A stretch of DNA of 64,000 bases from a virus (lineage: Duplodnaviria; Caudoviricetes). The first letter of the stretch is position 1. The number at the start of each line of letters is the position of its first letter. The notes beneath the pieces are model-generated. The model worked only from the letters and a program-made list of their open reading frames with translations. It ran no database searches and had not been told where the DNA came from. The translations under genes and the position numbers were made by a program. Location of the stretch: the IMG/VR virus record IMGVR_UViG_3300023178_000006; one strand, 5' to 3'. Positions 10,137 through 23,298 of this stretch are shown one piece after another.

Positions 10137-10703
10137 TTACGCACTCGCACCTTGATAACCTTGCCACCAATCAGGAGCTGGTCTACGCCATTCCCATTTA
10201 GCAAAAGGTTTGGATGCATGATAGTAATTCCTATAAGCTTCCACAGCATTTCCCTCAACTTTACATTCAGGAAAATGATTCATCGCCTGAGCGAATTCTG
10301 TTAGTCCTATGTCTGGTATATTCTTTGGTGGTTTAGATAATAGTACACCAAGTTTTAACCAGGTTGCGTGAGCTTTCCCACGTCGATATTCAAATTCGTT
10401 GGCCAACCCACGAAAATGTTCGTAGTGCCATTCATAGTTTGTCTTACTTTCTTTTGTCCAAGTTGTGCATGGGTGAAATTTATGTACAGCCAAATAGTAC
10501 ATGTCATCACGCTCATCACCGAATGAATAATATTGTTGTATTGTTTTACCAGACTTAGAAGGTCGTCTTTCAGGTGTACCATCAAGGAGTCGGTGAACCG
10601 TTGACAACATTTGAGCAGACTCAATAATCATTTTAGGAACGTGTCTGTCACAACACATTTGAGCTGCTGTTATAGGATTCTCATCTAGTACAAATATATT
10701 CAT
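10137..10703 (-). CDS. Pyrimidine-dimer DNA glycosylase (DenV-related) family protein
   Basis: MNIFVLD...CDRHVPKMIIESAQMLST, HPCTTW and AVEAYRNYY motifs. Confidence 0.75.
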   Translation of the reverse strand: MNIFVLDENPITAAQMCCDRHVPKMIIESAQMLSTVHRLLDGTPERRPSKSGKTIQQYYSFGDERDDMYYLAVHKFHPCTTWTKESKTNYEWHYEHFRGLANEFEYRRGKAHATWLKLGVLLSKPPKNIPDIGLTEFAQAMNHFPECKVEGNAVEAYRNYYHASKPFAKWEWRRPAPDWWQGYQGASA

Positions 10704-10918
10704 TCTTCAATATTGGCTAAGTGTTCATGCAATTCGTTAAGTTCAATAGAGAGCTTACGAATCTTTTCTTTATCTTGGTAGTATGCTTGTCCATCAGCAT
10801 ACGGTAAAAACTCATTTAGAGTTTCAATTTTATTTTGTCGCCAAGCAATTGCTTCTTCGATAGATTTTTTCGATACAATTTCATCGGCATCTACAACTGG
10901 TGCTAAAACGCGGTGCAT
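10700..10918 (-). CDS. Hypothetical protein
   Basis: GGAG ribosome-binding site; stop overlaps the next start. Confidence 0.7.
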   Translation of the reverse strand: MHRVLAPVVDADEIVSKKSIEEAIAWRQNKIETLNEFLPYADGQAYYQDKEKIRKLSIELNELHEHLANIEE

Positions 10919-11829: not shown

Positions 11830-12128
11830 TAAGCAACCTCTCTATAACCAGCAGCTTTACCATAAAAGCCAAGTTTTTCTAATTTTAAAACAATTTCGTT
11901 AAAAGCCGCACCTTCAGAATCTTGCGGATAGATACCCACTGTCATTGGGTCATCAATGAATAATTGACATTGTTCCCAAGTTGGGTTTTGATTGATATAA
12001 TCGTTGATGATTTTCTTTCCTTTTTCAAAAAGATTCTCATCTCTAGTTCTGACCTCAAAGTCAGTGATTTCATAACCGTCCATAGTCAAAGATGGTTCCG
12101 GTTGGTTTCCTAATATTCTTATTTCCAT
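11829..12128 (-). CDS. Hypothetical early protein
   Basis: AAGGAG ribosome-binding site, directly downstream of a promoter. Confidence 0.75.
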   Translation of the reverse strand: MEIRILGNQPEPSLTMDGYEITDFEVRTRDENLFEKGKKIINDYINQNPTWEQCQLFIDDPMTVGIYPQDSEGAAFNEIVLKLEKLGFYGKAAGYREVA

Positions 12129-12158
12129 TTTTACTCCTTTTCCTTAATTTATATGTAT

Positions 12159-12218
12159 ATTATACCAAATCAAAGTGAATTTGTCAACTGTTTTTGTGAA
12201 AAAAGTGCAACTTTTTTT
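12159..12218 (-). promoter_or_regulatory. Sigma70-type promoter with inverted repeat in flipped orientation
   Basis: TTGACA-N17-TATAAT at 12187-12159; AAAAAAGTGCAACTTTTTTT at 12199-12218. Confidence 0.88.
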
Positions 12219-12345
12219 CAATTCCTTCATAGAAGCCTTTTAAAAAATGGAAGGTATTCTATATGGCTTGAGAATTATGTTCTATCTTGATGGTCTGAGG
12301 GCTTCGTATGATGCTATTATATTATCACTATGGTTCTTTAGTTAT

Positions 12346-12353
12346 TATAAATA
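12346..12353 (+). promoter_or_regulatory. T4-type late promoter upstream of the curli/cyclase island
   Basis: Exact TATAAATA 46 nt before ORF 12399. Confidence 0.65.
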
Positions 12354-12398
12354 GAACATGTATAACCCAGTAGGGCTAATACAAATAACAGGGATTAT

Positions 12399-12695
12399 AT
12401 GGAATCAGTACTACAATTAATATCCGAGCTAGGTTTACCTATTGCTGGTGCATTAATTATGGGATTCTTCATCTTCATTATTATTAAACAAATTTTTGAA
12501 GGAATCATTGATAGCATTAATACTTTAAATATGTTCTGTGAAAGCCTAGAGAATAGAGCGAGAACTATGTCTAATGAGGTAGTTAAAATCGATTTGCTCG
12601 TGTCTAGCGCACTTGGATTAAATCCCGACATCGAGCGTATAGCTCGGGCAGAAAATTTTATTGAAGACGGAAAACTCGACGTAAGGAGAGACTAA
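12399..12695 (+). CDS. Small membrane protein (N-terminal TM helix plus coiled coil)
   Basis: LISELGLPIAGALIMGFFIFIII; resembles ORF 12897. Confidence 0.8.
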   Translation: MESVLQLISELGLPIAGALIMGFFIFIIIKQIFEGIIDSINTLNMFCESLENRARTMSNEVVKIDLLVSSALGLNPDIERIARAENFIEDGKLDVRRD

Positions 12696-12910
12696 TGCTA
12701 TTTTGTGGTTATCACTTCAGTTTAAGTGCTGGAGGGGATTTACTGATTTTTGACGAAGGTGACGGAGAGTTAACCTTAGAAAAGTTTGAGTGGAAACCTG
12801 GTGATGAATTCATCGCTTCTCAAACTGAAAATGGTGCTGTAACACTTAGAAGAAAAGCAGACAGAATATATAATCCAAAACAACTGGATTTATTCGATGG
12901 AAGAATTTGA
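12695..12910 (+). CDS. Small hypothetical protein, possibly AbrB/MazE-like
   Basis: LEKFEWKPGDEF...GAVTLRR pattern resembles swapped-hairpin proteins. Confidence 0.45.
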   Translation: MLFCGYHFSLSAGGDLLIFDEGDGELTLEKFEWKPGDEFIASQTENGAVTLRRKADRIYNPKQLDLFDGRI

Positions 12911-13181
12911 TATTATAACACTCGTTAGTGAGTACGGGTTTCCTACAATTATGGTGATTGGGTTAGGATATTTCGTGTACTTTGTTTATAACTTTATACA
13001 AGAGAATATTTTACCAACAATCGATAAAATGCATTTTCAATTAATCAAAGTGATTGATAGAATGAGAATGCTAGACCAGGATTTAATTAGACTGCAAGAG
13101 AAGGTAGACGTAGTTTTAAAATATAAAGAAAATGAGAAACTGAGAGAGGCAGGTGAAAAACATGATAAAAAAGATAATTGA
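12897..13181 (+). CDS. Small membrane protein (N-terminal TM helix plus coiled coil)
   Basis: LVSEYGFPTIMVIGLGYFVYFVY; resembles ORF 12399. Confidence 0.8.
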   Translation: MEEFDIITLVSEYGFPTIMVIGLGYFVYFVYNFIQENILPTIDKMHFQLIKVIDRMRMLDQDLIRLQEKVDVVLKYKENEKLREAGEKHDKKDN

Positions 13182-13668
13182 TGTAATTTTATTATCCGTT
13201 CTAACAATTGGTATTGCAAATGCTGAGCCTATTGTTCACAAATTCAAAAATCCTAGTTTCAGTGGTGTTGGAACAGGTGCTCATTATCTCACTATTGAGA
13301 ATCAAGAACATTCACGTAAGAAAGCAATCAAAGATGCATTAGATGCAGCCGAGAGAGCAGCACAACGAGAAATTGATAATTCAACATTATCAAAATTTAT
13401 ACGAAATTTAGAGAGTAGGATTTACGCTCAGTTAGCAAAACAATTAGTAGACAATATGTTTTCTAACGACGACCCTGTAAGATTTGGGTCCTTTGTTTTA
13501 GAAGGGTCAACAGTTACATATGAAGTTATTACAAACGCTGACGGAACAGAATTTATTAAAATGACAATTGTAGATGAAGATGGTACTACAACTGTTATTG
13601 AAATACCAATTGGTTCAGGTAACTTTGGAAGTGATGGAGATACTGGTGGGGATGGTGACGGTGGCTAA
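13162..13668 (+). CDS. csgF: Curli assembly protein CsgF homologue
   Basis: Signal peptide followed by EPIVHKFKNPSFSG (CsgF-type FxNPxFGG motif) and FIRNLESRIYAQLAKQL; adjacent to csgG. Confidence 0.85.
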   Translation: MIKKIIDVILLSVLTIGIANAEPIVHKFKNPSFSGVGTGAHYLTIENQEHSRKKAIKDALDAAERAAQREIDNSTLSKFIRNLESRIYAQLAKQLVDNMFSNDDPVRFGSFVLEGSTVTYEVITNADGTEFIKMTIVDEDGTTTVIEIPIGSGNFGSDGDTGGDGDGG

Positions 13669-14629
13669 ACTTTTATCCGCTGTATTTTTATCACTATTAT
13701 TAGCAAGTTGTGCACAGATGCCACAATGGTCTGAAGGACCAGCATATTGTGAGTATGGTGAAGGAAGATATGCACAAGGATTTAATACCGATTTTGATAA
13801 TGATGGTATTATAAATGATGATGCTTTAAGTGTTGGAAAACAACTATATACTGGTACTCGTAAGTATATTGAAACAAAACAAATATGTGTTGAGGCACCA
13901 CAAGTTGTAAGGTTACCATCATATATTGATTTGCTTAATTTACCACCTGCTAAAAATAAGCCTGTGGTTGCTGTATATCAATTCCAAGATAAAACAGGAC
14001 AACGTAAAGATTCAGTTACAGGGCAAAGTTTCTCCACTGCGGTAACACAAGGTGGAACAGAATTATTAATTGACGCACTCAAAACCGCAGGTGATGGTAC
14101 ATGGTTTAGAGTAGTAGAAAGACAAGGTATTGATGCTTTAGTAAGAGAACGACAAATTATTCGTTCGGGCAGAGATGAAGCTGCAAAAGCATTAGATGTT
14201 GAACCACAAAAATTAGGACCACTTTTATTTGCAGGTATGATAATCGAAGGTGGTATTATTGGATATGATAGTAATATACAAACTGGTGGACGAGGAGCAA
14301 GAACTCTTGGGATTGGATTTAGTAAATCATACAGACAAGACCAAGTCACTGTTTCTTTAAGAGCAGTATCTGTTCTCACTGGTGAAGTACTATTAAATGT
14401 TCAAACTAAAAAGACAATTTTAAGTTATGGTTCCGGAGGAGATGTATTTAGATTCATAGAGCAAGGAACGCAATTGATAGAATATGAAGACGGTGTAGGA
14501 AATAATGAAAGTGTGACATACGCAGTACGAACAGCAATTGAAGCTGCCGTATTGGAAATGGTTTATCAAGGTAATCGTCGTGGATACTGGGAGATAGACT
14601 GGAATAAAAATGAAGAGGAAAAAGAATGA
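13652..14629 (+). CDS. csgG: Curli secretion channel CsgG homologue (outer-membrane lipoprotein)
   Basis: Lipobox LAS-C; PVVAVYQFQDKTGQ, FSTAVTQGG, WFRVVER, ERQIIRS and EGGIIGYDSN. Confidence 0.93.
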   Translation: MVTVAKLLSAVFLSLLLASCAQMPQWSEGPAYCEYGEGRYAQGFNTDFDNDGIINDDALSVGKQLYTGTRKYIETKQICVEAPQVVRLPSYIDLLNLPPAKNKPVVAVYQFQDKTGQRKDSVTGQSFSTAVTQGGTELLIDALKTAGDGTWFRVVERQGIDALVRERQIIRSGRDEAAKALDVEPQKLGPLLFAGMIIEGGIIGYDSNIQTGGRGARTLGIGFSKSYRQDQVTVSLRAVSVLTGEVLLNVQTKKTILSYGSGGDVFRFIEQGTQLIEYEDGVGNNESVTYAVRTAIEAAVLEMVYQGNRRGYWEIDWNKNEEEKE

Positions 14630-15360
14630 ATAAAAAACTTTTAGGCCTAAGTTTAGCTTTTATTATGATTCCATTTTTAACATTTGCTCAAGCAACTGAT
14701 GATAACGAAATCAACATCGAACAGGATGGTGATACTCTTACTTTGTATATCGACCAATACGGTTACGGTAACAAAATTGGAGCTGATGATTTTAGTTCAT
14801 CTTCAAGTGCTATGGTTATAACTGGTTCATCTGTAAATATGAACATTGACCAAATTGGTAACTCAAACTTATTATTTGGTCCATTAATTGCAGATAGCTA
14901 TGTTCTGAATCTATTATTTACTGGTGACAGTAACTCTTGGGATTGGGATATCGGTTATGTTGGTTCTTCAGATAGTTCTACAATGGATGTAGATATTACT
15001 GGTGATTCTAACACTATGGATTTTGACCAAGGATACAATGCAAGTGCGGAAAGATTGGATTTTGATTTAACAGTTATTGGAGACAGTAACATTTTTGATG
15101 TTGACATTGACGTTGACGACGCAGTTTGGAATTTCGATATTACTGGTGGAAGCAACAATATCAATACATTACAAAAGGACGGAGCGGAGCATGAGATTAA
15201 CTTGACTCACGTAGGTTCTTCTGCTGATATTGATATTAACCAAATCAGTGGTACATGTCCTACAGGTGTTTCTACTTGTAATGGCATAATTACGTTGGAT
15301 GTCGATAGTGAAAATGCAACAATTCAGATTAATCAAAAAGATTCATCTAACGATTCTTAG
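14626..15360 (+). CDS. Curlin-repeat (CsgA/CsgB-like) secreted protein 1
   Basis: Signal peptide and recurring Q/T-x-G-x-x-N repeats (QYGYGN, QIGNSN, TGDSN twice, IGDSN, TGGSN); follows csgG. Confidence 0.7.
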   Translation: MNKKLLGLSLAFIMIPFLTFAQATDDNEINIEQDGDTLTLYIDQYGYGNKIGADDFSSSSSAMVITGSSVNMNIDQIGNSNLLFGPLIADSYVLNLLFTGDSNSWDWDIGYVGSSDSSTMDVDITGDSNTMDFDQGYNASAERLDFDLTVIGDSNIFDVDIDVDDAVWNFDITGGSNNINTLQKDGAEHEINLTHVGSSADIDINQISGTCPTGVSTCNGIITLDVDSENATIQINQKDSSNDS

Positions 15361-16468
15361 CGCATTTCTTTTATTACTACCATTGGGTCTGTCTGCAGCA
15401 GACTCAATCGGTAGTATAATTGAACACAAGGGAAGTGCTTCACTTACTCGTGAACAGGGTGAAGAGCTTGTCGTGAGTGGTTCATTTATACCAGAAGTTG
15501 AAATGAACGACACGGCCGAAACAGAAAACGGTCGAATGCTTATCGAATTCTTAGATAAAGCAGAACTCAGTCTTACAGAAAACACAAAAGTATACATTGA
15601 TAGAGTATACTACGACCCAGACCCAAGCAAATCAAAAATGGCAATGAGAATGGCAATGGGAACTGCAAGGTTCGCATCAGGTCGTTTGGGTATGGTCAAC
15701 AAAAATAATATAGACATACAAACACCCACAGCTACCATATCAGTTCGTGGAACAGATTTTACAACAACCATAGATGAATTAGGAAGGTCACTGGTGATAC
15801 TTTTACCAGACCAATATGGTAATCCATCTGGCACAATAGAAGTTTCAAATTTAGGTGGTACGATTGTCTTAGAAGAGGCTTACGCGGCCACTATGGTATC
15901 TACATTAGATAGTCCACCGACTCCTAAAGTACAAATAACTAATATAACACCAGCGATGATTGATAACATGTTTATCGTTTCTCCTCCACCTGAAGTGAAA
16001 GAAGCAATTGACGAAGAAATGCAAGATGACGCAAATGAAGACCAAGGATTACTTGACATCGACTTTTTAGAATTCAATGAATTAGAAAAAGATTATCTTG
16101 AAGATGACGCATTAGAATTTACTGAACTAGACATTGATTTTCTTGATGTTGATTTCTTAACAGACGTTTTAGATGTCGTTGAAGAATTAATTAAAACAAC
16201 TGCAGCACTTGATGATAGAGCTATCTCAGGTACATCTTTAGGAGCTCAACTTAAAGGTGCAGCATTTGGACTTAATGCTGATTCTCAATATAATATTTAC
16301 GAAGACAGTGGTAAGATTATATTTTATAGAAACGTAGAAGGTACGATACAACTCGCATTTGCGGTAGATGCTTCAGTTAAAATCGATACTGAAGTGGACG
16401 GATATTCTGGTATCATTGACTTGAACCAAGGTCAAGATTCTGTAATAGTAATTAAACAAGGTGGATAA
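15314..16468 (+). CDS. FecR-domain periplasmic protein
   Basis: Signal/TM segment; D.AETENGRMLIEFLD and IQTPTATISVRGTDF; acidic C-terminal region. Confidence 0.85.
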   Translation: MQQFRLIKKIHLTILSAFLLLLPLGLSAADSIGSIIEHKGSASLTREQGEELVVSGSFIPEVEMNDTAETENGRMLIEFLDKAELSLTENTKVYIDRVYYDPDPSKSKMAMRMAMGTARFASGRLGMVNKNNIDIQTPTATISVRGTDFTTTIDELGRSLVILLPDQYGNPSGTIEVSNLGGTIVLEEAYAATMVSTLDSPPTPKVQITNITPAMIDNMFIVSPPPEVKEAIDEEMQDDANEDQGLLDIDFLEFNELEKDYLEDDALEFTELDIDFLDVDFLTDVLDVVEELIKTTAALDDRAISGTSLGAQLKGAAFGLNADSQYNIYEDSGKIIFYRNVEGTIQLAFAVDASVKIDTEVDGYSGIIDLNQGQDSVIVIKQGG

Positions 16469-16476
16469 ATAATAAA

Positions 16477-16701
16477 ATGGAAAAAGAAATACTTAAAATA
16501 ATTGCAAATCGATGTGATTGCTCTTTAGAAGAAGTCACAAACGAAAAACATATCGTAGATGATTTAAACGCGGATTCATTAAGTGTAGTAGAAATCATTA
16601 TGGACTTAGAAGCCGAATTTAATATTCAAATTACTGATGAAGAAGCCGAAGAATTATTAACAGTAAAACAGATTAAAGAATATGTCGAGGTGAATACCTA
16701 A
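16477..16701 (+). CDS. acpP: Acyl carrier protein
   Basis: DDLNADSLSVVEIIMDLEAEFNIQITDEEAE with the phosphopantetheine Ser in DSL. Confidence 0.9.
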   Translation: MEKEILKIIANRCDCSLEEVTNEKHIVDDLNADSLSVVEIIMDLEAEFNIQITDEEAEELLTVKQIKEYVEVNT

Positions 16702-17075
16702 TGGCAAGTATACATTATCTCAAAAGAACAGCTGGTGAAGCGGTCGTAAAGATTTACGAAACAAGTAGCAGCGGCGATACAATAGAATTAGATATTGCTA
16801 ATTTAATTTCAGATGGTCAAACATTTGATGCTAATTCAGCTAACGTCACAATTAAAGAAATCTTTTGGGGTGTAAAACATAACCACTATATTGACGTATC
16901 TCGTAAAGAACGAGGTGGTTCTAATGTTCATGGTCATTATTATTTAGTCAATGCAGGTTCATATGATTACGATGGATTTGTAGATGATGTATATTCAGAA
17001 AGAAACATACAAGTATTACTTGATGGACCTGGTCATGTCATACTTAAATTAAATAAAACAGCTGGTTATAGTTGA
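16701..17075 (+). CDS. Hypothetical protein, possibly virion-associated
   Basis: 124 aa beta-rich ORF, coupled to acpP by TAATG overlap. Confidence 0.65.
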   Translation: MASIHYLKRTAGEAVVKIYETSSSGDTIELDIANLISDGQTFDANSANVTIKEIFWGVKHNHYIDVSRKERGGSNVHGHYYLVNAGSYDYDGFVDDVYSERNIQVLLDGPGHVILKLNKTAGYS

Positions 17076-17812
17076 TGGACGAATTTGATAGAAAATTAGA
17101 TAAATGGTTATTAGGTTTCAGTTGGTGCCTATTGGGAATGTATTTTCTTTTGGCAACTGGTAAAGCTTATGCAGATAATGTTATAACCATTGAACAAACT
17201 GGTGATAATTTAAATTTAGAGATTCAGCAATATGGTGCTGATAACGAAATTAAAATGTTAGACCAATATTCGTATATTAACGCGTCATCGTTAGATTTAT
17301 TAGTTGTTCAATATAATACTGCAGGTAATGATAACACAATAGTATTTGATGAAATCAGTGGAACAGGTAACGAATTTAAATTGGGTCAAGGTGTTGCTTT
17401 TGATAACACCACACAAGGTTGGAACTATGATGGTGCCGAAGGCGGTGGTCATTATATGGAAATAGATTTATATGGTAATGATAACTTTGTTGAATGGCAT
17501 CAAACAAATCAAAGTGATGCAACTGACGGACATGATTTTAACTTACATGTTGCTGGGTCTGATAATTGGATAGATGGAAGACAACAATCTTCAGGCGCAA
17601 AAGAAGCAAACATTACACTTTATAATTCAGACAACGTTTTAACATTTAGACAGAAAGGAGCTAACGCAACTCACTCAGCAAATATTACCTTAGATGGTAT
17701 TTACGGAACGACAGCAACTATTAGACAAAATAGCACAACCAATCAAACATACAATTTATCAGTGGATTGTTATACAGTTGGTGGTTGCTCAGTGAATGTG
17801 CTACAAGAATAA
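17072..17812 (+). CDS. Curlin-repeat secreted protein 2
   Basis: Mature N-terminus DNVITIEQTGDNLNLEIQQYG matches protein 1 (DNEINIEQDGDTLTLYIDQYG); G-x-x-N repeats; C-terminal Cys pair. Confidence 0.7.
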   Translation: MMDEFDRKLDKWLLGFSWCLLGMYFLLATGKAYADNVITIEQTGDNLNLEIQQYGADNEIKMLDQYSYINASSLDLLVVQYNTAGNDNTIVFDEISGTGNEFKLGQGVAFDNTTQGWNYDGAEGGGHYMEIDLYGNDNFVEWHQTNQSDATDGHDFNLHVAGSDNWIDGRQQSSGAKEANITLYNSDNVLTFRQKGANATHSANITLDGIYGTTATIRQNSTTNQTYNLSVDCYTVGGCSVNVLQE

Positions 17813-18126
17813 TGCAAGAGTTAGATGATTTTGGAAATCCAGTAGGAACATTATATCCGGGTGATGAAGGTTGCCCTCAAGATATGATTTGTTTAACCGA
17901 AGAAGGATTTAACCAAATGCTTTCTGAAGCTGATATGTATTATAATACAGAAACATTCCAAGTTGAGCCGATGGGCGATGCTGAAGCAATTATAGATTTC
18001 ACAACGGATTTATTGTTCTTGGATATTTGGACTATTTTAAATATGGCAGTACCATTAACAATTTTCGCAGTATATGGTTTAACATTATATGCAGCAGTAA
18101 AGTATATCCAAAAGAAGTTTAGTTAA
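17812..18126 (+). CDS. Membrane protein
   Basis: Start by TAATG overlap at 17812; C-terminal TM helix. Confidence 0.65.
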   Translation: MQELDDFGNPVGTLYPGDEGCPQDMICLTEEGFNQMLSEADMYYNTETFQVEPMGDAEAIIDFTTDLLFLDIWTILNMAVPLTIFAVYGLTLYAAVKYIQKKFS

Positions 18127-18127
18127 A

Positions 18128-20170
18128 ATGAAATGGTTAACAAAGTGGTGGACGGTATTATTCACCATTGCTGGTTTTTCAGCGTTACAAATATCAAACC
18201 CAAATTTTATTCAAAGTATAGAGTATTCTTATTATGACTATCTCCATTCAAAAAAGGAAAAAATTGCGTCGGAGGATATCGTCCTCGTCAACATTGACGA
18301 AAGAGCTATCAGAGCACAAGGCCAATATCCTTGGCCTAGGGGGAACATTGCTGATTTCATTAATGCTGGTCCTGCTGATTCTCTTTATGTCTTAAACATA
18401 ATATATTCTGAAGAAGATAGATTTGGTGAAGATAACGAACTTGCAGAAGCACTGGCCAATAGAGCTGTTGTATTATCATCAGCACCCACACAACAAACAT
18501 CTGGTGGAATAGGAACCTTTGTAGGTGTTGCCACTTTTGGAGAACAAGATGAAAATTGGTTGTATGAATTTCCAGGCCTTTTGTACCCTATTGAATCTCT
18601 TTCTAATTGGGTTTTTGGTGTTGGGGCCACCGTTGCTATTCCTGATGAACCAACAGGTGTCGTGCGAAGAGCACCCCTCGTTGTTAAAGCAGCCGGGAAT
18701 CCTTATCCATCTCTCGCCCTTGACACACTACGAGTGTACACCGGAGAACCAAGCTATCAAATGAAAGTAGGCACCAATGGTGTCGAATGGATTCGCATGG
18801 GTCGACAAGACCCAATCACTACAAACTCCTTCGCAGAAGTCCCTATAGCTTTCTGGAATGAATTCGAACAAGTCAGTATATTAGACCCATTACCCGAAGG
18901 TAAAGTTTTAATCTTTGGTATTACAGCTGAAGGATATGCTAATCCAGTTGCAACCCCATTGGGTGCAGTGTATCCCCACGAAGTTCAAGGTCATTTAATT
19001 CAGACCGTTCTTTCAGGAGTCGAAATACAGATTCCCGACTGGAAGCCAATAGCCGAGCTCGGTCTTCTGGTGTTATTGAGTCTAGGTATCCTTGGAGCGG
19101 TCTATATCTTGCCCATAACTCTTGGGGTGATAAAGAGTCTAATTCTGATTTGCGGTTCTTATGGAGTATCATTGTATCTCTGGAATGATGCTTTAATCTT
19201 TGTTGACGCGACCTTAAGTTCATTTGCTTCCTTAGTAGTTTTTGCCCAATCAAGTTTTAACAAGTATTTTATCACATTTTTAGAGAAACGTCAACTAGCA
19301 AAACAGTTCGCTGGTTATGCTTCTCCTACAGTCGTTCGTTTACTCCAAGAGAATCCTTCTCTCGTTAAAGAGGGAATGAAAAAAGAAATTAGTATTTGTT
19401 TTTCTGATTTAAGAGGATTTACACCACTGGGTGAAAGCTTCGGAGATGACGTACAAGGATTAACGAAGTTAATGAATGGGTATATGGATTCAATCACTGA
19501 GCCTGTCCTTAACGCTGATGGAATGATTATAAAGTATATAGGCGATGCTTCGATGCACATACACAATGCGCCTATTGACGACCCTGAACATCCTAAAACT
19601 GCAGTACAAACTGGAATCAATATGCTAAGGAGTGTAGAAAAATTCAATGAAAAGATTACAGCAGAAGGTCGACCACCAATTGGCATGGGGGCTGGGATTA
19701 ACACTGGTCTTGGTTATCTTGGTGAGATGGGTTCTACAGAACGACACAGTTATGATGTACTTGGTGACAGCGTTTCAACTGCTGCACGAATTGAGTCAAA
19801 ATGTAAAGAATATGGTTGCTTATTATTAGTTGGCGAAGAAACAGTTAAACGATGTTCTCCTAATGATTTCTTTTTCCTTAAAGTAGACGACCTTGCAGTA
19901 AAAGGAAAAACAGTAGGAATTGGAATATACACAGTATTAGACCTTGATAAGAATAAATATATTAAACCGGCCGAGATGCATGAAGCAATGCATCAGAATT
20001 ACCGTAAACAAAACTTCGATAAAGCTATTAAAATATGTAACGACCTTATGGAATGTTTTGAAGGTCAGATGGAAGGTTACTACAAGATGTGGATTGAGCG
20101 TTGCGAATATATGAAAACGCAAGATTTACCGAAGGATTGGAACGGTGTCTTTATTGCTACGACTAAATAA
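18128..20170 (+). CDS. CHASE2-domain class III adenylate cyclase
   Basis: CHASE2 motifs DIVLVNIDE, GQYPWPR and YPSLAL; three TM helices; cyclase motifs FSDLRGFT, IKYIGDA, GINTG and DVLGDSVSTAARIES. Confidence 0.93.
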   Translation: MKWLTKWWTVLFTIAGFSALQISNPNFIQSIEYSYYDYLHSKKEKIASEDIVLVNIDERAIRAQGQYPWPRGNIADFINAGPADSLYVLNIIYSEEDRFGEDNELAEALANRAVVLSSAPTQQTSGGIGTFVGVATFGEQDENWLYEFPGLLYPIESLSNWVFGVGATVAIPDEPTGVVRRAPLVVKAAGNPYPSLALDTLRVYTGEPSYQMKVGTNGVEWIRMGRQDPITTNSFAEVPIAFWNEFEQVSILDPLPEGKVLIFGITAEGYANPVATPLGAVYPHEVQGHLIQTVLSGVEIQIPDWKPIAELGLLVLLSLGILGAVYILPITLGVIKSLILICGSYGVSLYLWNDALIFVDATLSSFASLVVFAQSSFNKYFITFLEKRQLAKQFAGYASPTVVRLLQENPSLVKEGMKKEISICFSDLRGFTPLGESFGDDVQGLTKLMNGYMDSITEPVLNADGMIIKYIGDASMHIHNAPIDDPEHPKTAVQTGINMLRSVEKFNEKITAEGRPPIGMGAGINTGLGYLGEMGSTERHSYDVLGDSVSTAARIESKCKEYGCLLLVGEETVKRCSPNDFFFLKVDDLAVKGKTVGIGIYTVLDLDKNKYIKPAEMHEAMHQNYRKQNFDKAIKICNDLMECFEGQMEGYYKMWIERCEYMKTQDLPKDWNGVFIATTK

Positions 20171-20816
20171 GTTATTAATTGGAGTTCTTTTATTAGCACT
20201 TCCAGCTGAAGCTTACATACCAAAACAAAAATTTTATCCAACTTACGTTGACCCTGCAATGATTGCAAAATTCAAAGCAGGTCATACCGCACCTTATGAT
20301 GACGCATATGTTCGTCGAGTTGTTGTAGGTAAAGCTCGAATAATGGAAAACGGTGCTATTATTACTTTACCACACGGACCAGAACTTGTTCCTCCTCTAA
20401 AAGATTTAATGCATCACCCAAAGTTTAAGGAAAAGAAACCAACCCCACAATTCTCAGAAAATAGTATAAATTTAAATCTTGACATGTCCTCTCCAGAATT
20501 TTATTGGAATGAAAGAGAAAAAAGATGGATTGATTTATTCTTTTGGACCACACAGATACTCGATGTATATTCAACTTATAAAGGTATGAAGTATTCTTGT
20601 TTAACTGAAGCGAATCCTTTATTACCTGAAGTTCCAGAAGTACATGAAATGGTCGGTTTAAAGTTAGGTGTTATTGGTGGAATAAAATTTGTTTTAGATG
20701 GTGATGATACCTTTTGGTATGATTGGAAATTAGGTGCAGGCGTTTCAACTGGACTTGTTGTAGCAAATAATTTTAGATTAATTAATAAAGCCGAGAGACA
20801 GTGCGAAAAAAGATAA
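20145..20816 (+). CDS. Hypothetical protein with C-terminal membrane domain (EANP motif)
   Basis: LDVYSTYKGM...EANPLL followed by hydrophobic helices; start uncertain. Confidence 0.6.
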   Translation: MSLLLRLNKLLIGVLLLALPAEAYIPKQKFYPTYVDPAMIAKFKAGHTAPYDDAYVRRVVVGKARIMENGAIITLPHGPELVPPLKDLMHHPKFKEKKPTPQFSENSINLNLDMSSPEFYWNEREKRWIDLFFWTTQILDVYSTYKGMKYSCLTEANPLLPEVPEVHEMVGLKLGVIGGIKFVLDGDDTFWYDWKLGAGVSTGLVVANNFRLINKAERQCEKR

Positions 20817-20836
20817 GGGAGCCTTTCGACTCCCTT
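20815..20836. terminator. Hairpin between convergent transcription units
   Basis: AAGGGAG-CCTTTCGA-CTCCCTT. Confidence 0.65.
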
Positions 20837-20860
20837 GTGTTCTGTGATTGCAGATAAAGT

Positions 20861-20977
20861 TTAGACAATGGTACTTATGCTATAAACCATCATTCCTAAA
20901 AAGATTGTGGTTAATAAGCACTCAACACAAAGCTCCCCATTTACACGCAACCACACTTTTTGTGCCATTGCTTTCAT
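20861..20977 (-). CDS. 38-aa single-TM peptide
   Basis: MKAMAQKVWLRVNGELCVECLLTTIFLGMMVYSISTIV with AAGGGA ribosome-binding site. Confidence 0.6.
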   Translation of the reverse strand: MKAMAQKVWLRVNGELCVECLLTTIFLGMMVYSISTIV

Positions 20978-22140: not shown

Positions 22141-23298
22141 CTATACTCCTATTGTAGATGATTCATAAACTGAGTTATGTGTTTGAGTACAACGAACAAA
22201 CGTTGCACACTTATTTAAATGTTTAAGCTTTGCGGCCCCTGCATATGTACATGCACTACGTAAGCCACCTAAAATATCATTAATAGTATTTTGTACAGCA
22301 CCTCTATAAGGAACTCTTACTGTACGACCTTCACTCGCTCTATACTCTTTTAATCCACCAAAGTGTTTATCATTAGCAGATTTAGAACTCATACCATAAA
22401 ACTCTACAAATTGTTTCTCAATACGTTTACCAATCCCCGCGGACGTAGCGGGCGCCTGCACGTTTGAAATAATAGATTCAGTAATTACATTACCACCACC
22501 TTCATCATGTCCTGCGAGCATTCCACCCAACATTACAAAATCTGCTCCTGCGGCAAATGCTTTACATACATCACCAGGATTAGTACACCCACCGTCAGCA
22601 ATGATATGTCCTCCAAGACCATGCGCCGCGTCAGCACACTCGATGACCGCAGAGAGTTGAGGGTAACCCACCCCAGTCTGAATACGAGTAGTACATACAC
22701 TCCCAGGACCAATGCCGACTTTAACGATATCTGCTCCACTTAAAATTAACTCCTCTGTCATTTCTTTTGTTACTACGTTACCAGCAATAATGACGATGTT
22801 TGGTGCCTTTTCTCTGAGGGTTGCGATGAAATCTCTAAATCTACTACTATATCCATTTGCAACATCTACACAGACATACTTAATCGACTCTCTATTGTAT
22901 GTGTAAACCTTAATGAATTTAGTTAAATCTTCATCACTAATGCCCATGCTATATGCTACAAATTCAGTACGAAGAATTTGGTCGTCATTATAGAATGCAA
23001 TCAATTCATCTTCACTATATGTTTTCACTAGAGTGGTAAACAATCCTTGTTTCGAAAGAGTGTCAGCCATTTCCATCGTTCCTACTCCGTCCATATTGGC
23101 AGCCATAATAGGAATACCATAATAGTGCGGAGTTTCTCCAGACGCGCGGATAGATTCTATCGACATTTCTGGTGGTTCATAATTACGAAAAGTAAATCCA
23201 CGATATAAATCTACTTCTTTACGACTTCCAAGTGTTGACCGTTTTGGTTGAATTAAAACATCCTTATAGTCAAGCTTTATTTCGTTATCAATTCTCAA
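22141..23298 (-). CDS. guaC: GMP reductase
   Basis: [47 protein letters not shown] and YRASEGR. Confidence 0.93.

Follow-up and report, generated by a model that had tools for sequence, protein, structure and literature searches.

A CHASE2-receptor cyclase with a coupled Asp/Ser catalytic signature and its putative FecR-domain partner in the secretion gene cluster of an uncultured marine myophage

The window analyzed here, a stretch of 64,000 nucleotides taken as a whole (IMG/VR record IMGVR_UViG_3300023178_000006), derives from an uncultured T4-like marine myophage, as indicated by strong PHROG matches for a portal, a major head protein, both ribonucleotide reductase subunits, and a primase, and it encodes a secreted FecR-domain protein and a CHASE2-receptor class III cyclase, P0001, within a co-directional gene block that spans 12399 to 20816 (Table 1). 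Its GC (guanine plus cytosine) content is 36%, and the closest deposited genomes are those of Methylophilales phage Melnitz and Pelagibacter phage HTVC008M, both Kyanoviridae. The block holds co-directional CsgF, CsgG, curlin-like, FecR, curlin-like, and adenylate cyclase genes, the composition of the viral type VIII secretion system (T8SS) cluster. An original prediction, made from the letters of the window, had taken the cluster to be phage encoded, and this is borne out by the PHROG structural and replication matches and by the recurrence of the same cluster in related phages.

The gene cluster as such is already published and is not a discovery of this work. The order CsgF-CsgG-curlin-FecR-curlin-cyclase is annotated in HTVC008M and Melnitz, and every related viral locus with enough flank keeps the identical gene order. 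A viral T8SS cluster with curlin-like genes, FecR, and adenylate cyclase has been described from podo- and myo-pelagiphages, where it is spread ocean-wide and has transcripts in metatranscriptomes, with the viral curli genes and the FecR gene found at 65/65 of the GOV2.0 stations surveyed (PMC9599517). That study interprets FecR as an iron regulator and mentions neither CHASE2 nor catalytic residues, and two others consider CsgG/CsgF only, with the cyclase and FecR never mentioned (PMC7029224, PMC9004378); none of the three mentions a CHASE2 domain, catalytic residues, a division into two catalytic types, or domain shuffling. Compared with the pelagiphage systems (HTVC008M-type myophages, Melnitz, and HTVC023P-type podophages), the window has the same order of two small membrane proteins, CsgF, CsgG, curlin-like, FecR, curlin-like, and cyclase, and differs in the addition of ORF124 and ORF119. 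The new details concern the cyclase: a coupled Asp/Ser (and His-x-His) catalytic type, strong selection upon it, its apparent restriction to phage DNA, and the shuffling of sensor and output domains.

Table 1. Features of the gene block and of the cyclase catalytic domain (ORF, open reading frame; aa, amino acids; nt, nucleotides)
Feature	Position	Strand	Remarks
TATAAATA, T4-late-promoter-like motif	12346..12353	+	46 nt upstream of the block's first gene
Two paralogous small membrane proteins, 98 and 94 aa	12399..13181	+	N-terminal hydrophobic segment and charged helical/coiled tail
CsgF homologue	13153..13668	+	Pfam PF10614, 61.2 bits
CsgG homologue, outer-membrane lipoprotein pore	13574..14629	+	Pfam PF03783, 189.9 bits
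Curlin-like repeat protein 1	14626..15360	+	Weak Curlin_rpt match, 18.8 bits (below cutoff); weak CsgA/CsgB NCBIfam matches
Secreted FecR-domain protein	15314..16468 (ORF from 15299/15314)	+	Pfam FecR, 37.7 bits; phrog_37870, 231.8 bits
ORF124	16701..17075	+	Between fecR and second curlin-like gene; no Pfam, PHROG, or PADLOC family
Curlin-like repeat protein 2	17072..17812	+	N-terminal motif ITIEQTGDNLNLEIQQYG parallels protein 1; position conserved
ORF119, small protein with C-terminal hydrophobic segment	17767..18126	+	Closest relatives only; no family
CHASE2-receptor class III cyclase P0001, 680 aa	18128..20170	+	Pfam CHASE2 and Guanylate_cyc
His477-x-His479	19556..19564	+	Clade-specific; replaces Ala and Trp just past second metal Asp D473
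Coupled derived pair within YDVLGDSVSTAAR	19754..19777	+	D543 GAT 19754-19756; S550 TCA 19775-19777
ORF223, signal peptide and C-terminal membrane domain	20145..20816	+	Weak DUF5658 match

The Asp/Ser catalytic type of the cyclase

P0001 consists of a first transmembrane (TM) segment, a periplasmic CHASE2 domain (aa 21-319; nt 18188-19084), three hydrophobic segments (aa ~320-390), a catalytic domain (aa 417-595; nt 19376-19912), and a conserved C-terminal extension (aa 596-680). The Pfam CHASE2 model (PF05226) matches residues 21-319 with 100.6 bits against a cutoff of 26.3, Guanylate_cyc (PF00211) matches residues 417-595 with 60.2 bits against a cutoff of 21.9, and solved class III cyclases match the protein at E values of 8e-22 to 3e-20 (HMMER). 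The hydrophobic stretches at ~5-22 and 320-390, as read from the translation, with the output domain downstream of them, give the topology of a CHASE2 receptor. Because these features are identified by homology, chance is not at issue for either the motifs or the domains.

The original prediction had noted both metal-binding Asp motifs (FSDLRGFT and YIGDA), the substrate Lys (in IKY), and a Ser in place of the transition-state Asn in GDSVSTAAR, and all of these are present in the 680-aa product, with FSDLRGFT at residues 425-432, IKYIGDA at 468-474, and YDVLGDSVSTAAR at 542-554. D427, K469, D473, D543, and R554 are intact in P0001. Across the phage homologues, the metal Asp pair D427 and D473, K469, and R554 are invariant (57/57), R554 being the transition-state Arg, and so are K592 and K594 of the phosphate-binding VKGK motif. 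Ser550 aligns with the catalytic Asn of 6fht, 2w01, CyaB (3r5g), and CyaC (1wc0) in HMMER alignments, where 'vlgdsvstaaries' of the window stands against 'vvgaqvnltyries' (6fht/2w01), 'iigrevnlasrles' (CyaB), and 'aigpsvniaarlq' (CyaC). P0001 thus lacks the canonical transition-state Asn of class III cyclases, and since family membership rests on homology, the missing Asn lowers the case for a canonical enzyme and not that for membership. The replacement had been read as a possible sign of altered activity, which by itself it is not: a passage of PMC4886424 refers to several established cyclases without this Asn and cites Rv1900c of Mycobacterium tuberculosis, a natural class III cyclase with His at this position, to the effect that the Asn is not required for adenylyl cyclase activity. 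In Rv1900c, the replacement is His rather than Ser, and the enzyme is soluble and not closely related to P0001. Rv1900c reportedly also lacks the substrate Lys.

Whether the Asn-to-Ser change is clade-wide, a check that the original prediction had proposed, is answered by an exhaustive HMMER search of 1.84 billion cluster representatives with the catalytic half, of which the best 150 (50%-identity clusters) were scored. The change extends across the clade and never occurs without Thr/Ser-to-Asp at position 543, nor the latter without it: 14 of these representatives have Asp543 with Ser550 (14/14; D/S type) and 135 have Thr or Ser at 543 with Asn at 550 (135/135; Asn type), with neither Asp/Asn nor Thr/Ser-with-Ser combinations among them and a single other row that also lacks the Arg. 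In GTDB species genomes, the best 80 homologues come largely from Alpha-, Beta-, and Gammaproteobacteria and are all of the Asn type (80/80, against 0/80 for D/S), while the 57 full-length viral homologues divide into 54 with Asp543 and Ser550 and three (HTVC008M and two other viral loci, L074 and L014) with Ser543 and Asn550. The window cyclase, 52% identical to that of Melnitz and 33% identical to that of HTVC008M, shares the Asp/Ser type with the former, whereas the latter is a canonical Asn-type enzyme (Lys/Ser/Asn). With Asp543 and Ser550, P0001 departs from the class IIIb-like pattern of Lys/Thr(Ser), in which Thr or Ser at the second substrate-specifying position accompanies Asn. The description of its ATP-selecting residue as intact therefore holds for K469 but needs qualification for the pair, since the nearest relatives are Lys/Thr(Ser) enzymes and the Lys/Asp pair is itself derived; the coupling of Ser550 to Asp543 had been missed.

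Five further positions split the two types: G435 (Ser elsewhere), V442 (Pro), P459 (Ile/Val), H477 (Ala), and H479 (Trp/Phe). H477 and H479 are each found in 13/13 D/S representatives, at positions where Asn-type representatives have Ala (132) and Trp, Phe, or Tyr (132), such that the segment reads GDASMHIHNAP in the Ser type and GDAxMAFWNAP in the Asn type. Judged from these alignments, residues of the predicted substrate pocket have changed together. Wherever their context is readable, D/S genes belong to the viral cluster or to fragments of it with low GC content, as in thyX ... CsgF-CsgG-x-FecR-cyclase (L077), CsgF-CsgG-x-FecR-x-cyclase (L164), curlin-FecR-cyclase (L080), and a 3.9-kb fragment, perhaps also of phage origin, with the cyclase followed by FecR (L079). 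No D/S gene was found in a clearly bacterial context, in a search that was not exhaustive, and the type is apparently restricted to phage-type DNA.

The catalytic domain is under purifying selection. Its ratio of nonsynonymous to synonymous divergence (dN/dS, NG86) is 0.04-0.06, against 0.13-0.21 for CHASE2, and its protein identity is 76-96% between phages that share only about 35% identity in CHASE2. This identity does not reflect recent homogenization, as the proportion of synonymous differences (pS) is 0.47-0.70 even among the closest relatives, which is near saturation. Among distinct viral sequences, 26 use an AGY codon for Ser550 and 21 use a TCN codon. A switch between these codon families takes two substitutions by way of a non-Ser intermediate, and the presence of both is a classical mark of long-standing selection for Ser. 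Given a dN/dS of about 0.05 and the use of both codon families, Ser550 is selected and not decaying, and the relaxed selection on catalytic residues that would have spoken against a functional enzyme was not observed.

The D/S type has a single origin, as it forms one clade in the catalytic-domain tree, with a support of 99 in the Shimodaira-Hasegawa-like approximate likelihood ratio test (SH-aLRT). Sister to this clade is a Thr/Asn group; P0125, the one member of it that was checked, comes from phage-like contigs. The CHASE2 tree mixes D/S proteins with Asn types: its starred branches require the type to have changed at least five times, and monophyly of D/S is rejected by the approximately unbiased (AU) test (p = 3e-73); the CHASE2 domain of the window is sister, with a support of 100, to those of the Asn-type L074 and L014. 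Nor do pairwise distances of the catalytic domain correlate with the CHASE2, FecR, or CsgG distances (r about 0.2). From the incongruence of the trees and the lack of correlation between distances, it follows that sensor and output have recombined repeatedly. In a related metagenomic contig (L165:1497-4183), a D/S cyclase gene is divided into two ORFs, one for CHASE2 and one for the TM and catalytic parts, and the gene between the halves encodes a homing endonuclease (NUMOD3, 32.2 bits against a cutoff of 20.4; phrog_314 and phrog_655). Its position coincides precisely with the domain junction at which recombination is indicated by the trees. A homing endonuclease is thus a possible agent of the domain shuffling.

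The FecR-domain protein and CHASE2 receptors

The FecR protein begins with a signal-peptide-like helix that passes directly into a beta domain, and its Pfam FecR match exceeds the cutoff of 24. In an AlphaFold2 (AF2) model with a confidence (pLDDT) of 75, the signal helix and the beta domain (residues 38-230) are followed by an acidic/helical linker of poor order and then, at 320-389, by a small beta domain. With VIA-align, the first beta domain matches the C-terminal cell-surface signaling domain (CCSSD) of PupR (6ovk; Z 15.2, root-mean-square deviation 2.6 over 136 residues) and a Bacteroides anti-sigma factor (4m0n; Z 14), and it is accordingly a periplasmic FecR (CCSSD) domain. The original prediction had described a FecR protein with a repetitive acidic tail; the signal peptide, the FecR domain, and the two LDIDFL copies stand, but the acidic region is not a tail, as both copies lie in the internal linker (about residues 245-315) and the small beta domain follows it. 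A Foldseek match of the protein to an adhesin anchoring domain (5ix9) lies, according to VIA-align, in the N-terminal region at residues 34-131, with a middling Z of 6.5, and not in the C-terminal domain; an NCBIfam 'Lsa33 adhesin' match of 28.6 bits against a cutoff of 420 amounts to resemblance in the FecR domain. The C-terminus is a conserved 'N/S-x-I/V-x-I-x-Q' strand in each of the 23 phage FecR proteins (window 16380-16465; alignment columns about 405-426), and this 'xIxIxQ' strand resembles the Q/N-ladder strands of the neighboring curlin-like proteins, which hints that the C-terminal domain could dock onto fiber subunits.

In bacteria, FecR domains can accompany CHASE2 cyclases outside any curli context. 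A FecR-domain ORF lies within 8 kb of the cyclase in 23/80 of the bacterial CHASE2-cyclase loci, directly upstream on the same strand in at least 12 of these, and a CsgG/CsgF neighbor was found in 0/80; the bacterial enzymes thus differ from P0001 in gene neighborhood as well as in being of the Thr/Ser-with-Asn type. In four of the six such FecR neighbors that were scanned (L084, L087, L089, and L107), the FecR domain is the N-terminus of a very large protein and is followed by cadherin-like/Big_9 repeats, with RTX repeats also present in three and a VWA domain in one. The RTX-bearing proteins look like type I-secreted adhesins.

Pairing of FecR with CHASE2 has precedent. A Burkholderia biofilm-switch operon, 'BiofilmReg', encodes a response regulator, a LysM/FecR protein, a CHASE2 histidine kinase, and DUF4136 (PMC5192318), and it resembles the phage arrangement in having a secreted FecR gene directly upstream of a CHASE2 receptor and a link to the surface and biofilms, while it differs in its histidine kinase output and in having LysM instead of the acidic linker and C-terminal beta domain. 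Sinorhizobium meliloti has the CHASE2 class III cyclases CyaD1, CyaD2, and CyaK, of an alphaproteobacterial-type family, and the FecR-domain protein SMc02177, which is periplasmic, is a target of the cyclic AMP (cAMP) regulator Clr downstream of these cyclases (PMC5498481); these cyclases sense a protein signal by way of NsrA, a protein of the outer membrane (PMC13001267).

In 23 phage loci, the divergence of the FecR domain follows that of CHASE2 (r 0.80), also when CsgG is controlled for (partial r 0.61), whereas CsgG and CHASE2 distances are hardly related given FecR (0.07). Such tracking is compatible with the co-evolution of a contact between the two proteins. Complex prediction for CHASE2 (22-322) with the FecR domain (36-250), from 23-row alignments, gave a median score of 0.01, with one run at 0.33. 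The idea that FecR and CHASE2 form a periplasmic sensing pair, put forward in the original prediction, remains plausible in view of the bacterial neighborhoods, the distance tracking, and the PupR-like fold.

Other genes and expression of the block

The two small proteins at the start of the block match no Pfam or NCBIfam family and no kinase family. Pairs of ~93-aa ORFs that resemble them precede csgF in HTVC008M and Melnitz, and the pair is probably the genes termed 'HK' ('histidine kinases') in PMC9599517. The true start of CsgG is likely Met27 at 13652, from which a lipobox-like LLASC follows. The position of curlin-like protein 1 is conserved in all related loci. A tblastn comparison with the 75 related loci gave no match to ORF124, which is thus a lineage-specific insert in the cluster, and ORF119 is 95% identical to its relatives in L002/L003, 67% in L063, and 37% in L007. 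ORF223, with identities of 68-71% in L002/L004/L062 and about 35% in L005/L007, may be translationally coupled to the cyclase gene, as its start overlaps the end of that gene.

The TATAAATA motif upstream of the block suggests late expression. Four + strand copies occur in the window, all 30-45 nt upstream of ORFs, and the other three precede structural genes, the major head gene included; the total count in the window is not above chance. Scans of the region for sigma-70 promoters and terminators gave chance-level results. In three related loci (L019, L021, and L022), the block from CsgF to the second curlin-like gene is inverted relative to the cyclase gene, and because of this divergent arrangement, co-transcription of the cyclase with the secretion genes is not obligatory.

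Two other genes in the vicinity of these clusters may be recorded. An IMP dehydrogenase/GMP reductase family gene (225 bits) lies near the cluster at 22141-23298 on the - strand; it is an auxiliary purine-nucleotide gene that might influence nucleotide pools. In L077, a related phage contig, a 133-aa gene (10348-10749) located two ORFs downstream from the D/S cyclase has a weak Pfam match to Tad3, a family name that suggests an anti-defense protein.

A putative envelope-sensing circuit and its alternatives

Taken together, we consider it reasonably probable (about 0.6) that the FecR protein and P0001 are the signaling half of the viral T8SS cluster, with sensing by FecR and CHASE2, a cyclase that most probably makes cAMP, and Ser550 as a selected remodeling. 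Under this interpretation, P0001 would be an inner-membrane receptor in which the periplasmic CHASE2 domain, held between one and three membrane segments, drives the cytoplasmic class III domain, and the secreted FecR-domain protein would be its periplasmic partner. The phage would have taken a two-gene FecR/CHASE2 sensor cassette of the kind found in many proteobacteria, in which a giant secreted adhesin may often carry the FecR domain as its cell-retained N-terminus, and combined it with a CsgG/CsgF pore and a pair of curlin-like fiber subunits. The FecR protein could then report the state of the secreted fiber, the pore, or the envelope to CHASE2, upon which the cyclase would raise a cyclic nucleotide, most probably cAMP given Lys469/Asp543, in the infected cell late in infection. 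Ser550 is not a defect but one element of a selected remodeling of the pocket (G435, V442, P459, H477, H479, D543, and S550) that arose once from a Lys/Thr/Asn ancestor and was later moved between sensor domains by recombination.

Several points weigh against this interpretation. The correlation between FecR and CHASE2 trees could partly be explained by the closer linkage of fecR than of csgG to the cyclase gene. In a mammalian adenylyl cyclase, the same Asn-to-Ser change (N1025S), in work of 1997 by Yan and colleagues, is said to have cut kcat 30- to 100-fold, and if so, the activity of P0001 could be low unless other changes compensate; the changes that accompany Ser550 may be compensatory, or the chemistry may differ. 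The late timing is drawn from one 8-nt motif. Metatranscriptome contigs (four libraries from as many studies) match stretches within 12300-20900, among them short segments of the cyclase gene, but contigs of RNA libraries may contain DNA and show neither strand nor level, so that they lend weak support to the expression reported in PMC9599517, and gaps in their cover carry no meaning. The change in host cAMP/CRP regulation that the original prediction envisaged, like an interaction with host immune signaling, is conjectural. No cyclic nucleotide monophosphate (cNMP)-binding domain (PF00027) was found in five related phage genomes, and any cNMP receptor would therefore be the host's or of a type not searched for. 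PF00027 occurs in 61/61 sampled genomes of the family of L152 (labeled Methylotenera), 1.3-Mb ones included, which weakly suggests that hosts of this kind, if the phage uses them, could have a receptor. In a SAR86 metagenome-assembled genome (L088; 1.4 Mb, streamlined marine), the sole cNMP-binding-domain match lies ~2 kb downstream of a CHASE2 cyclase (locus about 12100-12400), a compact cyclase-receptor neighborhood in a possible host-type organism.

The substitutions themselves appear to touch the triphosphate (S435G), metal-proximal (A477H and W479H), base (T/S543D), and ribose (N550S) regions of the site, and a changed substrate or product is possible. The D/S clade might use another nucleotide or make another product (cyclic GMP, a cyclic pyrimidine, or a non-3',5' form), or it might have acquired a new metal or pH dependence through His477/His479, and the absence of the seven-position combination from 80 bacterial homologues and 135 neighboring clusters, together with the very strong constraint on it, is in keeping with such a change. 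Pycsar cyclase models also give generic matches to the catalytic domain (56.5 bits); these show only that the fold can host pyrimidine cyclases, and the score is no better than the 60.2 bits of the generic Pfam model. Lys469/Asp543 is, however, the classical ATP-specifying pair of class IIIa enzymes, the related phage genomes lack a cNMP-binding domain, and no Pycsar-like effector or receptor gene lies nearby: where a Pycsar cyclase sits beside a cyclic-nucleotide-binding TM or TIR effector, the neighbors here are T8SS and FecR genes. We therefore regard altered chemistry as unlikely, if conceivable; were it true, the phage would make a messenger that the host does not normally produce. Somewhat more doubtful is a broader proposal in which the D543/S550 (and H477/H479) domain is a phage-confined invention with a different messenger or control from that of the Asn type and FecR is a tether that reports the state of the curli-like fiber or CsgG pore. 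If it held, an infected cell would monitor its surface for attachment, aggregation, or superinfection and tune late infection accordingly, for example the timing of lysis, and in marine phage populations alternative output 'alleles' would be maintained behind interchangeable sensors, with homing endonucleases aiding the swaps. It is improbable that the catalytic domain is a pseudo-enzyme that binds nucleotide and dimerizes without cyclizing and that serves the secretion cluster as a scaffold or as a sensor of nucleotides. It does lack the transition-state Asn, and purifying selection alone cannot separate catalysis from binding, but pseudo-cyclases usually lose their metal ligands, whereas the phage homologues invariably keep the metal Asp pair, Lys/Asp, the transition-state Arg, and the VKGK motif. 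Asn- and Ser-type domains also replace each other behind closely related sensors, which suggests equivalent output, and Rv1900c, in the passage cited above, is a cyclase that does not need the Asn.

A different question is whether FecR has anything to do with the cyclase, as it could be an iron or ferric-citrate regulator acting independently, in line with its Pfam family name and with the iron limitation of the surface ocean discussed in PMC9599517. We hold this to be very improbable. The phage protein has the periplasmic fold in common with the FecR/PupR anti-sigma factors (6ovk), but a signal peptide replaces their cytoplasmic anti-sigma domain and membrane anchor, and their TonB-dependent transducer and extracytoplasmic function (ECF) sigma factor have no counterpart here, with neither family found among the ORFs Pfam-scanned between 10137 and 23298. 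Furthermore, bacterial FecR-domain genes adjoin CHASE2 receptors without iron genes, often as the N-termini of adhesins, and FecR divergence tracks that of CHASE2 specifically. By these comparisons, the FecR protein is probably not an iron regulator here but the usual periplasmic partner of CHASE2 receptors.

The reading of FecR and CHASE2 as a sensor pair gives the viral T8SS cluster a testable logic, in which a surface fiber or pore would be coupled to a cytoplasmic second messenger. The Asp/Ser site amounts to a natural experiment with a position held to be catalytic among class III cyclases, and the interchange of Ser and Asn types in nature provides matched enzyme pairs with which to approach the role of the Asn and the possibility that phages make nonstandard cyclic nucleotides. 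The incongruent domain trees, together with the homing endonuclease at the junction, illustrate how phages may rewire sensors and outputs. The importance of these findings would rise sharply if the product or the regulation of the enzyme proved to be unusual.

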